Below are positions 1,643 to 7,743 of a stretch of DNA of 40,000 bases, piece by piece (positions within the stretch are counted from its first letter, which is position 1; each line of letters begins with the position of its first letter). The stretch comes from Desemzia incerta (GTDB lineage: Bacteria > Bacillota > Bacilli > Lactobacillales > Carnobacteriaceae): NCBI RefSeq assembly GCF_900115825.1, contig NZ_FOXW01000002.1, positions 51,795-91,794 on the forward strand, read 5' to 3'. The notes below the pieces were generated by a model, which saw only the letters and a list, made by a program, of their open reading frames with translations, did no database searches and was not told the DNA's origin. Made by a program: the position numbers and the translations under genes.

Positions 1643-2248
1643 ATGTCACGCTATACAGGTCCAAGTTGGAAAAAATCTCGTCGTTTAGGTATTTCATTAA
1701 CTGGTACAGGAAAAGAAATCGAACGTCGTCCTTACGCACCAGGAGATCACGGTCCAAACAGCCGTAGAAAATTATCTGAATACGGTTTGCAATTACAAGA
1801 AAAACAAAAATTACGTTTCATGTACGGTGTAAATGAACGTCAATTCTTCAACCTATTCTTAAAAGCTGGTACTATCAAAGAAGGAAAACATGGGGATAAC
1901 TTCATGATCCTTTTAGAACAACGTTTAGATAATGTTGTTTTCCGTTTAGGTTTAGCTACTACTCGTCGTCAAGCACGTCAATTAGTAAACCACGGTCACG
2001 TACTTGTAGATGGCAAACGTGTTGATATTCCATCATACAGCGTTCAACCAGGACAAGTAGTTTCAGTTCGTGAAAAATCTAAAAACATGGAAATCATCAA
2101 AGCAGCTGTTGAATCTGTATTTGGTCGTCCAGAATTCGTTTCTTTTGACGAAGAAAAATTAGAAGGTTCATTAACTCGTCTTCCATTACGTGAAGAATTG
2201 AGTGCTGAAATCGACGAAACTCTTATCGTTGAGTACTACTCAAGATAA
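1643..2248 (+). CDS. rpsD: 30S ribosomal protein S4
   Basis: 201 aa, [16 protein letters not shown]...S4 domain...VEYYSR. Strong SD GGAGGA. Confidence 0.98.
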
Positions 2249-2312
2249 TAAGAATCATTCGACGATCTTTCTTAAAAGCTTGGAAATCTTTCATAGATTT
2301 CCAAGCTTTTTT
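2243..2312. repeat. Left copy of a 70-bp perfect direct repeat (putative attL): last rpsD codon, stop, 3'UTR and terminator
   Basis: AGATAATAAGAATCATTCGACGATCTTTCTTAAAAGCTTGGAAATCTTTCATAGATTTCCAAGCTTTTTT is identical base for base to 5860-5929. Confidence 0.95.
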
Positions 2313-2313: not shown

Positions 2314-3048
2314 ATAGAATTTTTTTAATTTTTAATAACAGTTAGAATGATTTAGGAAAATCAAAATTGATAGTCGCATTCTATTACTCGTCTGTTTTAT
2401 TCGGTTGTTTCAAACCTTTTTCGGTAACCAAAGGTGTCTTCTATATTCATTGAAATTCACGTAGTTCTTTACTACCCAATTAACGATGACAACAACCTGC
2501 CATTATTCTCATATCTATAAATCATATATGAGAGCAACATTTCTCTTAAAAAGTAACAGTGATTTTAACGCCACTTGTTTGCCGCTGAAGTATGAATGTT
2601 AAAAACTTGTTGTTTTTTAACGTTATAGTAGTTATTATAACGTTAAAAGATGTGTCACCGACGAGCGATATATTATTGCAAAAGAAAATACAAATTGAAT
2701 ACTGCAATTTTGTTAACGAAAATATGGAAGCAAAACTCAAAAGAGTCCATTACAAAATGGCTTCATCCTTTTGATTGCTGATTCAAGGGTATATTAGCTA
2801 TATGCAGTACATATAAATTGAAATAAGATAACCTGCTAAAACATTGGAAAAAACCATAGAAATAAGTTGTCAATCTATAAAAAATGCTCTAGTCACTGCA
2901 GCTAACAGTAACTAGAGCTCAACTCCTTGATATGTAGATATAAAAAGTTCAAGGCTAAAAATTTAAGTAAACAAACTGAAAACTGATGAGAACAGTTTTC
3001 AAAGATACGTTTTCCTTATATACATTATACCATATTGGAGGTTTTATT

Positions 3049-3741
3049 TTGAAAAAAATTGTTGGTGGATTATTATTATCACTTTCGGCGGTAACACTAA
3101 TGGCGTGTTCTGGTGGTTTAGATAATACAGGAAAAGAAACATCTAAGGATAGCAACGCAGCTACATCTTCTAGTGCCATTGAACCTGTAGATGAAAACTA
3201 TGTAGAGAAAGGTAAATTGTTAGAAGTTGGACAATGGACTGATGACGAAGGTTATGGCGGTAAGATTACTCTTGCTAAATTAGCTAGTCCAAAAGAAACT
3301 ATTCAAATCTTAGATGGTTTTTCTATATTAATTAATGATATCAAAATACTTGAGTATTCTGAAGTTGATCAAAATTTATTAGAATCAGACGTTTCGGATG
3401 GATTTATCCCAGAGAATTCACTAACTGAAGATGGTTTTTATACTATTCAAATTGACTACGTAGTTACTAATGATACAGATAATGCTTTAGATTTTTATGG
3501 TTTAAACTATATTGTCACTGATCAAGGACAACAAATAGACGTTATGATGGATAACTTAAACTACAGCAATACTACAACTTTCCAACCAAATACTAAAGTC
3601 GAAGATTACATAGTAGCACCAATTAACGCTGAAGCTATGAGTGATTTAAGCAAAGTCACCTTAACTACGTCAGAGTTATGGGATGAAAGTGATGGTTCTC
3701 AATTAGTTGATGAAAAATCTATAGAAGTAAACTTTAATTAA
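3049..3741 (+). CDS. Putative secreted lipoprotein (island cargo)
   Basis: A TTG start at 3049 follows SD GGAGGT and is in frame with track ORF 2986..3741. The N-terminus MKKIVGGLLLSLSAVTLMAC carries lipobox L-M-A-C. The mature part is Ser/Thr/Asp-rich and looks beta-rich. Confidence 0.8.
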   Translation: MKKIVGGLLLSLSAVTLMACSGGLDNTGKETSKDSNAATSSSAIEPVDENYVEKGKLLEVGQWTDDEGYGGKITLAKLASPKETIQILDGFSILINDIKILEYSEVDQNLLESDVSDGFIPENSLTEDGFYTIQIDYVVTNDTDNALDFYGLNYIVTDQGQQIDVMMDNLNYSNTTTFQPNTKVEDYIVAPINAEAMSDLSKVTLTTSELWDESDGSQLVDEKSIEVNFN

Positions 3742-3755
3742 TAACTTAATTACTT

Positions 3756-3804
3756 AAAAAATAAAAATGCAGCACTCTCCCCGACCAAAGGTTGAGTGCT
3801 GCAT
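3756..3804. terminator. Hairpin terminator after the lipoprotein gene, better suited to leftward (minus-strand) transcription
   Basis: Perfect 11-bp stem ATGCAGCACTC (3767-3777) / GAGTGCTGCAT (3794-3804). The plus-strand downstream tract is poor (CATTTGAG). The preceding A-run AAAAAATAAAA gives a good U-tract on the minus strand. Confidence 0.5.
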
Positions 3805-3867
3805 CATTTGAGTTAGATATTGAATAGTACACGTTAATTTTTAAGTTTTAATTCAGGTGTATTCAAA

Positions 3868-4118
3868 ATGAAATTTGGAATTCGAAAGCCTAGTATTAAG
3901 AATCAATAATCTCTAGGACAACAGGAAAAACTAAAAGAGCTATTAAAGTAGAAATAATAACAAATTCCTTCTTTCTGATTCGGAAGTGGCGAAAAAGAGG
4001 TGAACAATATTTACGAAATAATTACATCTATCCTGGTCTGTGGTTTGCTTGCAGGGTGCATAAAATTTATAACAAAATAAAAACAACCCACTCCCCTACT
4101 TTGGACGGTGAGGAGTGA
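3868..4118 (+). pseudogene. Possible frameshifted gene remnant (MKFGIRKPSIKNQ* followed by a 70-codon Met-less frame)
   Basis: The ATG at 3868 opens 13 codons ending at TAA 3907-3909. A frame offset by one nucleotide (codons starting at 3909, overlapping the last base of that TAA) stays open to TGA 4116-4118 (ISRTTGKTKRAIK...). From memory, the lysine-rich N-terminus resembles small conserved hypothetical proteins of Firmicute mobile elements. This is unverified. Confidence 0.25.
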
Positions 4119-4119
4119 G
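4073..4119 (-). terminator. Minus-strand-specific intrinsic terminator just beyond the 5' end of the 227-aa gene
   Basis: On the minus-strand RNA, CUCACUCCU pairs with GGGAGUGGG (9 bp including two G-U pairs) around a 15-nt loop, followed by UUGUUUUUAUUUU. On the plus strand the same positions give C-A mismatches and no U-tract. Confidence 0.5.
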
Positions 4120-4181
4120 ATAAATAACGCATTATGGAATATCTTTGTATTATTATACCATAAGATCGAGGTGAATTTTAA

Positions 4182-4865
4182 GTGTCCAATACTTATTTAA
4201 TTGCAAAAACAAGCAATTTTAATAGAAATTATTCAATAGACCCTAACGTACAAACAAGTCTGCTAGATGCAGATGGATTAGCTATCACAGAAGGAGATCC
4301 GGAAACTAGGATGCAACACTCTACAAATATACAAGTTGATAATAAAGATGTTGCAGTCTACACTATTCATCATGATTATAAAGTGAAAAAAACAGGAAAA
4401 GTTTTTGATAGAATATTTCATTATTACTTAGATCCAAAAGATTTTTATCTTTACTATGTTGAAGCAGAAAGTCTTTTGTTAGTCCGTGCTCAAAAAGATG
4501 TTGCAAAAGATTTTTTAAGTTACTTATCTCAAGAATTTCCTAATTTTAAATATGAAATACTGGAGCCTAATTTAAAAACTATAATGTCTAAAGTCGATGG
4601 GTTAAAAGGAGCCTGGATTTCCGTTGTAAAAGATGGCGTAAATACAGAAGCTTATTTTGGAAGCGAAGTAGAAAATGACGATGATGTTCGTGAGGGAATA
4701 GATAACGAAAAAGCCACGTATATAACCTTCATCTACTTGTTTGCAGACAAAGAAATATATTGTGGCATTTCTAAAAAAGGAAATATTACATTGTATGACG
4801 ATTCTCTAACGGATGATGAAAAACAGGTAATCATCATGCGAATATACGAGCACTTAATTAAATAA
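4182..4865 (+). CDS. Orphan hypothetical protein, 227 aa, soluble and acidic (island gene A)
   Basis: GTG start with SD GAGGTGA 7 nt upstream. The next in-frame Met is at codon 44. There is no TM segment, no P-loop, and no catalytic motif that I recognise. Confidence 0.75.
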   Translation: MSNTYLIAKTSNFNRNYSIDPNVQTSLLDADGLAITEGDPETRMQHSTNIQVDNKDVAVYTIHHDYKVKKTGKVFDRIFHYYLDPKDFYLYYVEAESLLLVRAQKDVAKDFLSYLSQEFPNFKYEILEPNLKTIMSKVDGLKGAWISVVKDGVNTEAYFGSEVENDDDVREGIDNEKATYITFIYLFADKEIYCGISKKGNITLYDDSLTDDEKQVIIMRIYEHLIK

Positions 4866-5633
4866 GTTGTTATTCGATATTGCTATATACTCTTTTGAAA
4901 TAGATTTTATTTGGGCTAAAGAAGTAGAATGAATTGAAATATTATTATTTTTTATAAATACAGTTCCTTCATCAAGCTCATACTTCATATTAAAATTCAA
5001 TTTATCAATTTTTTCAAAATTGTTTAAATATACTTTATAAAATGGATTGAAATCATCCAATTCAATTGATAACAAACATGAAACATCCGTTGGATGGATA
5101 AAGTTAGAACGAATAATTCCTTCTACTTCTGAGTACGTAGTGTATAAATCACTCAAAGAATTTCTATATGATGTTCGATATTTAGAAGATATTCTAACTT
5201 CATATTCATCAGGATTTTCTATTGATAGCACATATTGATTTTGATTTACACTGATTTCATACTTGGTTAAGTTTTTATTATAAGAATTAGGAAATTTAAA
5301 ATCCGAATATTTGCTTGACAGGTCTTTAAAAATATCTTCAGTAAGGTTTTCATTAATCTGATTAACAGAATACACCGTAGTGATTTTCCAAGAGACAGAT
5401 GGATTTGCTATATAAACAATCAGTTTTCTCCAGTTAGTGAATATCCAATTAACGTGTGAATAGCTGTAACTACATATAAAAATAAAGTACCCTATTAATT
5501 CTATAAAAGAAGTTACTCTTGAAGTGTTTGAACTTTCTTTAAATGAATTAATGTAGTTGATACTCAATACAGCGAAGGCTATCCATGCAATAATTACTAA
5601 CACAAGAGGGGTATACTTTTTTATCTTATCCAC
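4854..5633 (-). CDS. Orphan membrane protein with two N-terminal TM helices and a ~190-aa Asn/Ser/Tyr/Lys-rich C-terminal domain (island gene B)
   Basis: The track ORF runs 4854..5645, but GTG 5645 has no SD. The sequence AGGTGGTGA (5647-5639) is itself a strong SD, 5-8 nt before the in-frame GTG at 5633. TM1 is roughly YTPLVLVIIAWIAFAVLSINYI and TM2 roughly FIELIGYFIFICSYSYSHVNWIF. Positive residues flank both helices, which puts the C-terminal domain in the cytoplasm. Confidence 0.75.
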   Translation of the reverse strand: MDKIKKYTPLVLVIIAWIAFAVLSINYINSFKESSNTSRVTSFIELIGYFIFICSYSYSHVNWIFTNWRKLIVYIANPSVSWKITTVYSVNQINENLTEDIFKDLSSKYSDFKFPNSYNKNLTKYEISVNQNQYVLSIENPDEYEVRISSKYRTSYRNSLSDLYTTYSEVEGIIRSNFIHPTDVSCLLSIELDDFNPFYKVYLNNFEKIDKLNFNMKYELDEGTVFIKNNNISIHSTSLAQIKSISKEYIAISNNNLFN

Positions 5634-5655
5634 CCATATCACCACCTATATTTAC

Positions 5656-5683
5656 ATTATACACAAAAAGGAACATATGTTCT
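5656..5683 (-). promoter_or_regulatory. Extended -10 promoter of gene B overlapped by a LexA (Cheo) box
   Basis: The minus strand reads GGTAGAACATATGTTCCTTTTTGTGTATAATG. The extended -10 TGTGTATAAT is at 5665-5656. GAACATATGTTC (5682-5671) matches the Firmicute LexA consensus CGAACATATGTTCG in all 12 core positions and covers the -35 region. Confidence 0.55.
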
Positions 5684-5859
5684 ACCTTAACTATTTATTA
5701 GAGTAGAACGATTTTTAATCTACTGGCCTACGTTAAATTTTTTCTCATAGCTCTTTTTGTCGACTAATAATATCACACTTAAGGATGTGATAACAAATCC
5801 TTTCTAGATTCCCATCCGGCAATCTGTAAGGAATGAATTACGAGTACGACATTGAAACC

Positions 5860-5929
5860 AGATAATAAGAATCATTCGACGATCTTTCTTAAAAGCTTGG
5901 AAATCTTTCATAGATTTCCAAGCTTTTTT
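5860..5929. repeat. Right copy of the 70-bp perfect direct repeat (putative attR)
   Basis: Identical to 2243-2312 at all 70 positions (checked base by base). Confidence 0.95.
5893..5929 (+). terminator. Duplicated copy of the rpsD terminator hairpin
   Basis: It has the same 14-bp stem as 2276-2308, followed by T6. It would stop rightward transcription leaving the island before yueI. Confidence 0.6.
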
Positions 5930-7053: not shown

Positions 7054-7743
7054 TTAGATGTTTTTGATGATTTCAATGACCATCTCTGCTGATTTTTTAC
7101 CCGCTTCAATAATAAATTGGTCAAAGACCACTCCTGCTTCATCATCTGCAGTATCAGAAACAGCTCGTACGATTACAAACGGCTTATTGAATTGGTAGCA
7201 TACTTGCCCTACAGCGGCTCCTTCCATTTCTGAAACAAGAGCATCCGGGAAGTTCGCTTTGATCTCTTTGATGACGTTTTTATCCGCTATAAATGAATCA
7301 CTGGTTACGATAACACCATTAACTGATTTCAATCCGACTTTTTTCGCAGCTTTATCTGTAATTTCGATCATTTGTTGATCTGCTTTATAACGCGCCGGCA
7401 TTTGAGGAACTTGTCCCATAACATAGCCGAAAGCACGTGCATCAGCATCGTGATAAGCTAATTCAGTAGAGATCACAACGTCCCCTATCGCTAAACTTCC
7501 ATCAATCGCGCCTGCAGAACCTGTATTGAATACAACATCTGCCTGGTGATCATTGATCAATAATGTAGTTGCTATCGCAGCGTTGACTTTTCCTATTCCT
7601 GATTGAACTAAGATAATGTCATGACCCCACATCTTTCCAGAAGAAAAATTTGCTCCTGCTGTAGACCAATCTTGACGATCTGTTAAATTACTTTTTAATG
7701 TAATGGTTTCTTGTTCCATTGCTCCAATGATACCGATTCTCAT
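7054..7743 (-). CDS. mtnN: 5'-methylthioadenosine/S-adenosylhomocysteine nucleosidase
   Basis: 229 aa, MRIGIIGAMEQE...SGIGKVNAA...SEMEGAAVGQV, the classic Pfs/MtnN motifs. SD GAGGAG. Confidence 0.93.
   Translation of the reverse strand: MRIGIIGAMEQETITLKSNLTDRQDWSTAGANFSSGKMWGHDIILVQSGIGKVNAAIATTLLINDHQADVVFNTGSAGAIDGSLAIGDVVISTELAYHDADARAFGYVMGQVPQMPARYKADQQMIEITDKAAKKVGLKSVNGVIVTSDSFIADKNVIKEIKANFPDALVSEMEGAAVGQVCYQFNKPFVIVRAVSDTADDEAGVVFDQFIIEAGKKSAEMVIEIIKNI

Follow-up and report, generated by a model that had tools for sequence, protein, structure and literature searches.

The stretch analysed here, referred to as the window, comprises 40,000 nucleotides (nt) of the Desemzia incerta genome (Carnobacteriaceae; RefSeq assembly GCF_900115825.1, contig NZ_FOXW01000002.1, positions 51,795 to 91,794). 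It contains two neighbouring genes, called here gene A and gene B, which are convergent and overlap by 12 nt at their 3' ends, an arrangement that leaves no space for terminators at the junction. Immediately upstream of gene B, which codes for a membrane protein, lies a palindrome of the type recognised by LexA, the repressor of the SOS (DNA damage) response, in Firmicutes. Together with a lipoprotein-like gene, A and B occupy a 3.6-kb islet of about 30% GC, against 36–38% in its flanks, in a chromosome of Lactobacillales type (rpsD, a DUF1694 gene, mtnN, telA, ileS, and a division and cell-wall cluster from divIVA to mraZ). The analysis concerns this palindrome, the promoter in which it is embedded, and the A/B cassette that it is predicted to control.

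The palindrome, GAACATATGTTC, is perfect. Including its flanks (GGAACATATGTTCT), it agrees at 12 of 14 positions with the 14-mer CGAACATATGTTCG, a consensus taken from the published Firmicute LexA operator and not from the SOS genes of Desemzia incerta itself; the flanks are G and T, versus C and G in the consensus. Read on the minus strand, the upstream region of gene B has the order AGAACATATGTTCC - TTTTTGTG - TATAAT - GTAAATAT - AGGTGGTGA - TATGG - GTG. The element TGTGTATAAT, which spans 5665-5656, includes the -10 hexamer TATAAT at 5661-5656, and its TGTG directly abuts TATAAT, which departs from the canonical TGnTATAAT register. If the spacer is taken as 17 nt, the box overlaps four of the six bases of the -35 hexamer TAGAAC, as well as part of the spacer. 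An earlier note on this DNA had described a palindromic box at 5671-5682, lying over the -35 region and 9 nt upstream of an extended -10. The sequence and coordinates proved exact and the overlap with the -35 is real, but the spacing was given slightly loosely, as 9 nt is the distance to TATAAT and only 5 nt separate the box from TGTG. The start of gene B is most likely the GTG at 5633, which was chosen by independent gene calls on identical contigs and gives a protein of 259 amino acids (aa), whereas the first in-frame GTG (5645) falls within the ribosome-binding site.

Taken alone, the generic pattern GAAC-N4-GTTC is not significant, with one copy in the window versus 0.42 expected and at least one copy in 32 of 100 shuffled sequences. 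The exact 12-mer has an expectation of 0.004 per 40 kb, and an exact box of any kind has a probability of about 7e-4 of occurring in the 60 nt ahead of a given start codon. The earlier note had remarked that the generic pattern could arise by chance in 40 kb and that the full 12-mer is far less likely to do so. In the homologous loci considered below, one-mismatch boxes form a background of about 0.24 per kb, and exact boxes number at most one per locus, even within 12.7 kb. The significance of the box comes from its conservation across homologous loci, and not from the rarity of the generic pattern.

In order to evaluate this conservation, we compared the window with DNA of 11 further lineages that carry the gene A/gene B cassette (n = 12; handles L003 to L016, boxes listed in Table 1). 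The divergence sampled is large, as identities fall to about 23% for gene A and about 17% for gene B. The convergent pair is present in every lineage, with a 3' overlap of 4–12 nt in most and a short gap in L012/L013 and L016. An exact box is found within 46 nt of the gene B start in 8 of the 12 lineages (the window, L003, L005, L006, L007/L008, L009, L011 and L016), and a one-mismatch GAAT or GTTT variant is found at the promoter in two others (L010, with two copies, and L012/L013). The GAAT variant is a form present at Bacillus subtilis recA. When the 11 complete boxes are aligned, G1, A2, A3, G9, T10 and T11 are invariant and C4 and C12 are kept in 10 of the 11, whereas the four central bases and the flanks vary freely. 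The intergenic DNA around the box is poorly conserved apart from the -10, which, along with its spacing from the box, aligns in the window, L003 and L005; these last two lineages also have an equally short leader upstream of gene B, and the gene B promoters of L012 and L016 have the same layout as that of the window.

The position of the box switches among lineages, either to the -35 side, 9–15 nt upstream of the -10 (8 nt in L016), or to the stretch that separates the -10 from the ribosome-binding site. LexA classically blocks RNA polymerase from both of these positions, the -35 side and the +1 region. This shifting between the -35 and +1 sides with unchanged arms is binding-site turnover under purifying selection. 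By the terms of the earlier note, its interpretation would have failed had the box been missing from all homologous loci; instead, all lineages open to examination have a LexA-type box ahead of gene B. A chance palindrome devoid of regulatory function, for which the shuffling result of the generic pattern could be invoked, is scarcely credible in view of these data; conservation at the same promoter among 12 diverged lineages, at about 7e-4 per locus, effectively refutes it, and we rejected a chance origin.

As a separate observation, L004, the sole lineage with a far-off exact box, carries a long AT-rich inverted repeat, AGAACATATTTATT-ctagtct-AATAAATATGTTCC (L004:309-345), about 320 nt upstream of gene B, which resembles a box whose halves lie 27 nt apart.

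The cassette is found repeatedly in mobile elements. In L012 and L016 it lies within a typical temperate-phage lysogeny module, with the order cro-like gene and antirepressor, cI-like helix-turn-helix gene, one open reading frame (ORF), A, B (on the opposite strand), ImmA-type metalloprotease, and integrase. The gap between B and the ImmA gene is about 150–200 nt in both and contains two boxes, one of them at the gene B promoter. The second box, AGAACATACGTTTG, is located at L012:6625-6636, between the -10 and the ribosome-binding site of the divergent ImmA–integrase genes, and at L016:1874-1885, just before the ImmA ribosome-binding site. In addition, a one-mismatch 14-mer, AGAACATACATTCG, occurs twice between B and the integrase in L010 (2654-2667 and 2720-2733) and once upstream of gene B in L009 (1685-1698). 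Second boxes at these places are expected of an SOS-wired prophage, and suggest that in these prophages the anti-repressor protease and the integrase are under the direct control of host LexA. In L006, L007/L008, L010 and L011, gene B has a divergent recombinase of the tyrosine or serine type as its neighbour. The neighbours in L005 (3753-5824 and 8854-11955) resemble a defence island, comprising a DUF2321 gene beside Peptidase_S24, an HNH nuclease, an IstB fragment, and a DUF87 (HerA-like) ATPase beside a faint SIR2-like gene. From these contexts the cassette can be regarded as an accessory module of temperate elements, in which LexA-type boxes mark the promoters that should fire at induction. 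Further searches gave no match, either in a scan of viral contigs, in a tblastn search of sequenced phages with A, B and two distant relatives of A, or in a scan of a genome collection with an alignment of close gene A sequences, where the window itself is probably masked.

The palindrome GAAC-N4-GTTC, the overlap with the core promoter and the conservation in orthologous promoters are the features of Firmicute LexA operators that can be checked in a sequence, and all three were found here. The published B. subtilis SOS box is the same motif as the window box, and the GTTT form seen among the variants is reported for clostridial lexA and recA operators (PMC4234289); a search of the literature on LexA in Carnobacterium yielded nothing informative. 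On the strength of this motif identity, LexA is very probably the protein that binds the box. An element-encoded regulator, either the gene A product or a phage repressor, could instead bind it and make the cassette self-regulated, with no link to DNA damage. The box accompanies the cassette through all lineages, the model of A has a fold of DNA-binding type (see below), and the window offers no LexA site of a host SOS gene for comparison, all of which would suit such a regulator. However, operator arms that stay unchanged while the A and B proteins diverge so far better fit a conserved host factor, RdgC and RexA bind DNA non-specifically (PMC11077077), the same motif is also present at ImmA–integrase promoters, and the variants include the GTTT form of the clostridial operators. 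We consider self-regulation very improbable. In our view, the palindrome probably works as a Firmicute-type LexA operator and gates the promoter of gene B, which encodes the membrane partner in a conserved pair of genes carried by temperate phages and integrative elements.

Table 1. Features of the cassette and its surroundings in the window, and LexA-type boxes associated with gene B in the other lineages.
Locus	Feature	Position	Strand	Description
Window	Predicted LexA-type operator (SOS/Cheo box) GAACATATGTTC	5671-5682		AGAACATATGTTCC with flanks on the minus strand; 9 nt before TATAAT; from motif match and lineage alignment
Window	Predicted gene B promoter	5656-5684	-	-35 TAGAAC 5684-5679; 17-nt spacer ending in TGTG 5665-5662; -10 TATAAT 5661-5656
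Window	Ribosome-binding site AGGTGGTGA	5647-5639	-	8 nt past the -10, implying a very short leader
Window	Gene B	4854-5633	-	259 aa, GTG start; membrane protein with a domain of about 180 aa of no known family
Window	Gene A	4182-4865	+	227 aa; same sequence as a Desemzia incerta protein annotated as hypothetical
Window	First B-sense hairpin terminator (predicted)	4072-4119	-	Hairpin 4087-4119, T-run 4086-4072
Window	Second, stronger B-sense hairpin terminator (predicted)	3755-3848	-	Stem 3766-3805, followed by a T-run; loop CTTTGGTCGGGGAG
Window	Lipoprotein-like gene	2986-3741	+	Signal peptide with lipobox LMAC; phrog_3727, E 4e-20
Window	Left 70-nt direct repeat	2243-2312	+	Last bases of rpsD and its terminator; att-like boundary
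Window	Right 70-nt direct repeat	5860-5929	+	Carries the bidirectional terminator hairpin 5891-5927
L003	Box AGAACTCTTGTTCT			15 nt before TATAAT
L005	Box AGAACGTTTGTTCT			9 nt before TATAAT
L016	Box AGAACTTACGTTCC			8 nt before TATGCT
L012/L013	Box AGAACAAATGTTTC			9 nt before TATCAT
L010	Box CGAATGTATGTTCT, two copies			One abutting an extended -10
L006	Box AGAACATTTGTTCC			Between -10 and ribosome-binding site
L007/L008	Box AGAACGTAAGTTCT			Between -10 and ribosome-binding site
L009	Box TGAACACAAGTTCG			Between -10 and ribosome-binding site
L011	Box CGAACACCAGTTCT			Immediately before the called gene B start
L004	Box GGAACGAATGTTCG			539 nt upstream of gene B
L014	Box ..ACATATGTTCG			Half-box at the contig end

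The arrangement of terminators around the cassette gives an indication of how far transcription from the gene B promoter extends. Terminators in the B sense are found only beyond gene A, so that a transcript from this promoter should cover B, the whole of A in antisense, and the A promoter. The first of them, hairpin 4087-4119 (fold energy -16 kcal/mol, z -2.6), is reached about 60 nt past the gene A start codon, beyond the sole conserved -10-like element upstream of A, and an almost identical hairpin occurs at the same position in L005; it likely ends the B transcript after its antisense crossing of all of gene A. The second, hairpin 3766-3805, is stronger (-24.7 kcal/mol, z -5.2), and its counterpart, with a covarying outer stem, is found upstream of the gene B promoter in L003, L005 and L006, T-tailed in the first two. 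There, this B-sense hairpin just upstream of the box appears to play the role of a shield. In the window, the hairpin 5891-5927 in the right repeat can, from its position, protect the gene B promoter from upstream read-through and also end A-sense transcripts. The idea of the earlier note that gene B is read through in antisense into gene A is thereby structurally supported, by the conserved A/B overlap and by the T-tailed B-sense hairpin beyond A in the window and L005. Taken together, the architecture supports a face-to-face switch in which the near-consensus B promoter, once derepressed, would interfere with the weak promoter of A.

Two further observations concern the hairpins themselves. 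A loop of the form CTTTGGTC(G/A)GGGAG recurs in the window (3755-3848 and 4071-4150, minus strand), L003 (1-40), L005 (about 7535-7575, minus strand) and L006 (1569-1659, minus strand); the loops of the two window hairpins are mutually complementary on the same strand, and in L006 the hairpin follows a promoter, TGTGCTATAAT, and might correspond to a small RNA of antisense type opposite the integrase leader. The pT181 counter-transcribed RNA model (RF00242) scored 38.1 bits at 3755-3848, 25.9 at 4072-4119, and also 34.6, against a gathering threshold of 56; membership of this family was rejected, the likeness being limited to a terminator hairpin with its loop.

These elements suggest the following sequence of events. 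In an undamaged cell, LexA bound on the -35 side would hold gene B off, and gene A would rely on the weak promoter in front of it or, where the prophage is intact, on transcription of the lysogeny strand. Upon DNA damage, RecA-stimulated cleavage of LexA would release the near-consensus promoter of gene B, and RNA polymerase would transcribe B and then proceed antisense through A and the A promoter, up to the conserved terminator. The cassette would in this way flip from a state with A on and B off to a state with B on and A down.

The same wiring could also serve a toxin–antidote or abortive-infection module, in which the box is a real LexA operator, B is a membrane toxin released by the SOS response, and A is a neutraliser removed by antisense transcription. 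The tight insulation of the gene B promoter (operator, upstream terminators and near-consensus -10), the convergent genes with antisense overlap, the L005 copy among defence-type genes (SIR2-like with DUF87, and HNH), and the location of the cassette in several loci in a prophage accessory-gene slot beside the integrase are all in line with this possibility. We nevertheless regard it as possible but unlikely, as no PADLOC defence model was matched, A is the better conserved of the two proteins, contrary to what is usual for antidotes, and killing of the host during the SOS response would abort the induction of the very prophage that carries the cassette.

The product of gene B has two hydrophobic helices, a strong, putatively transmembrane one at the N-terminus and a weaker one, together with a conserved domain of about 180 aa in which the motifs NPxVxW, SYRxS and NPFYKVY occur. 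It is rare, with three clusters at 90% identity among 5.8 billion proteins, and comparison with Pfam, NCBIfam, PADLOC (E-values up to 1) and PHROGs gave no match for B; the PHROGs searches made for the A and B families led only to families without an assigned function. Homology between A and the C-terminal domain of B was considered and rejected (hhalign probability 0.2%). With regard to its annotation, the sources of the B product cluster are ENA and Logan only, whereas the A product has an NCBI record, and gene B (4854-5645, minus strand) may be unannotated or start-shifted in the deposited Desemzia incerta genome.

The Gram-positive SOS division inhibitors known so far are membrane proteins controlled by LexA, and B, as a membrane protein under LexA-type control, could accordingly be regarded as a prophage-borne functional analogue of YneA or SosA, with A unrelated to it. 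The size of B, its large conserved non-membrane domain and its lack of LysM or YneA/SosA-type features argue against this role, and led us to reject a YneA/SosA-type identity; moreover, B is strictly paired with A at every locus and is not beside lexA. A division inhibitor thus seems improbable, in agreement with the remark in the earlier note that B is unlike these small proteins.

Gene A is more conserved than gene B. Its product falls in five clusters at 90% identity among 5.8 billion proteins, and the family retrieved by a full profile search amounts to 141 representatives. No match was obtained in Pfam (where none of 50 family members scanned gave a match either), NCBIfam or PADLOC, nor in a profile search against the sequences of solved structures; 22 of the 50 family members matched phrog_18260, whose function is unassigned. 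The AlphaFold model of A has a pLDDT (predicted local distance difference test) of 76.5 and a pTM (predicted template modelling score) of 0.75. In a Foldseek search, the best solved match of this model is Escherichia coli RdgC (2owl; E 2e-6, probability 1.0, template modelling (TM) score 0.49, root-mean-square deviation 8.7 Å), the next is yeast Iml3, and in a comparison with viral models phage RdgC-like proteins come out best. The model of gene A thus points to an RdgC-like fold. RdgC (2OWL) and IML3/CHL4 are also the structural neighbours reported for lambda RexA in the paper describing its crystal structure, and RexA and its homologues, like RdgC, bind DNA non-specifically (PMC11077077).

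Based on the model and on the prophage context, we favour by analogy, with moderate confidence, a Rex-like role for the cassette, in which A would be a cytosolic DNA-binding protein present in the lysogen and B a membrane partner expressed separately at induction. A more elaborate possibility is a LexA-gated commitment switch, that is, an RdgC-like restrainer of RecA or DNA transactions with a membrane antagonist, which would be a LexA-wired Gram-positive counterpart of RexA/RexB–PLIT with unrelated sequences. In such a switch, A would damp RecA activity or stabilise the repressed state in the lysogen, cleavage of LexA during the SOS response would turn B on, and B would silence A both by antisense transcription and by sequestering it at the membrane, a positive feedback leading to all-or-none induction. 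We hold this version to be rather doubtful.

Several observations weigh against a LexA-gated, Rex-like cassette. Promoter occlusion is not universal, because in L004 the exact box lies 539 nt upstream of gene B, and in L014 only a half-box, ended by the contig end, is seen about 100 nt upstream of a separate promoter. None of the lexA, recA, uvr or din genes, whose operators would give a LexA matrix of the same genome, is found within the 40-kb window. The gene A promoter is weak and poorly defined. The A model derives from a shallow alignment of 5 sequences; for B, the alignment has 3 sequences, the pLDDT is 68 and the fold matches are weak (TM-scores of 0.2–0.3, to TBP-like and YwmB folds) and were not relied on. 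RexA is not among the top 50 solved-structure matches of the A model, and searches of Pfam, NCBIfam and PHROGs with A, B and their relatives showed no sequence similarity to RexA, RexB or RdgC.

The islet that carries the cassette in Desemzia incerta is bounded by two 70-nt direct repeats, which are 100% identical (family D1), have a spacing of 3617, and read as the trace of a site-specific integration event into the 3' end of rpsD. As no integrase is encoded between them, the islet can be seen as what remains of a prophage or island, or else as a cis-mobilisable element. The suggestion of the earlier note that mobile elements might be involved is thus well supported, since the cassette belongs to prophages and islands and the window copy lies within these repeats. 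A search of the genome collection with a 21-mer of the att-like repeat returned a single chance Nitrospirales contig, and neither an empty site nor an intact element at rpsD. The lipoprotein-like gene of the islet is, from its phage protein family, a possible candidate for superinfection exclusion, and L010 has a DUF5067 gene at the matching position upstream of A. Between two hairpins upstream of gene A lies a tiny ORF (4000-4080, plus strand) with a GTG start, coding for 26 aa (VNNIYEIITSILVCGLLAGCIKFITK) with a lipobox-like LLAGC; it is not conserved in L005 and may encode a small membrane peptide or be due to chance. As the window cassette is stranded in an integrase-less islet of 3.6 kb, B would here have become an accessory part of the SOS regulon of the host.

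The LexA box in itself is ordinary, and what stands out is the uncharacterised, rare and conserved prophage cassette under its predicted control. An unannotated gene pair derived from a mobile element thereby joins the predicted SOS regulon of a Carnobacteriaceae species. Despite its rarity the cassette is conserved, and its regulation can be read from the sequence, with host LexA and face-to-face transcription that is expected to silence the partner gene. If A is truly of the RdgC/RexA type, Firmicutes would have in this cassette an analogue of the Rex system, itself a long-standing puzzle, and, if its membrane partner is indeed expressed specifically at induction through hard-wiring to LexA, the idea that Rex is controlled by stoichiometry would become directly testable. 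The analysis also illustrates that binding-site turnover can be used as functional evidence where the relatives are metagenomic only.

In comparison with known systems, the box shares with the Firmicute LexA operators of recA, lexA and uvrB the common palindrome, including the GTTT variant (PMC4234289), and the overlap with the core promoter. The difference lies in the predicted target, which is an uncharacterised mobile-element cassette and not a repair gene. LexA-controlled switches are known in other mobile elements, such as coliphage 186 (Tum), the Gifsy phages (antirepressors), GIL01 and the CTX phage. The likeness to these is a host LexA operator on a promoter of the element, with which the second boxes in L012 and L016 also fit, whereas the regulated product here is a membrane protein with a convergent partner, and not an antirepressor. 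YneA and SosA are Gram-positive membrane proteins repressed by LexA, as B is predicted to be, but they are small, single-pass and encoded beside lexA, whereas B is larger, paired with A, and located on mobile elements. Structurally, the A model comes closest to RdgC, a DNA-binding ring that is associated with recombination and holds RecA in check, and a link to RecA and the SOS response would suit the LexA wiring; however, RdgC has about 300 aa compared with the 227 aa of A, the TM-score is only about 0.5, and A has no match to the Pfam RdgC family (PF04381).

The closest functional parallel that we propose is the RexA/RexB pair of phage lambda, together with the Rex-like pairs of actinobacteriophages. 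By sequence, the cassette falls outside the RexAB and RdgC families, and a Rex-like mode of action is an analogy, for which the fold, the context and the separate regulation speak. B, with one or two membrane helices and a domain of about 180 aa, does not resemble RexB, which has four such helices in 144 aa, and rexA and rexB are arranged in tandem, whereas A and B are convergent and overlapping, with predicted control by the LexA of the host. In both systems, a soluble protein, which in the case of A judging from its model has RdgC and Iml3 as structural neighbours as RexA does, is paired with a membrane protein, and both are found in the prophage immunity region by a cI-like repressor (in L012 and L016, a context that the window copy has lost). 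RexB counteracts the effect of RexA on the lambda switch (PMC11077077), and PLIT, the promoter that belongs to rexB itself, remains active after induction, so that rexB is then expressed alone (bioRxiv 10.1101/2021.04.19.439022). Gene B likewise has its own promoter, which would be active at induction, and in this respect the LexA-type box would provide for B what PLIT provides for rexB.

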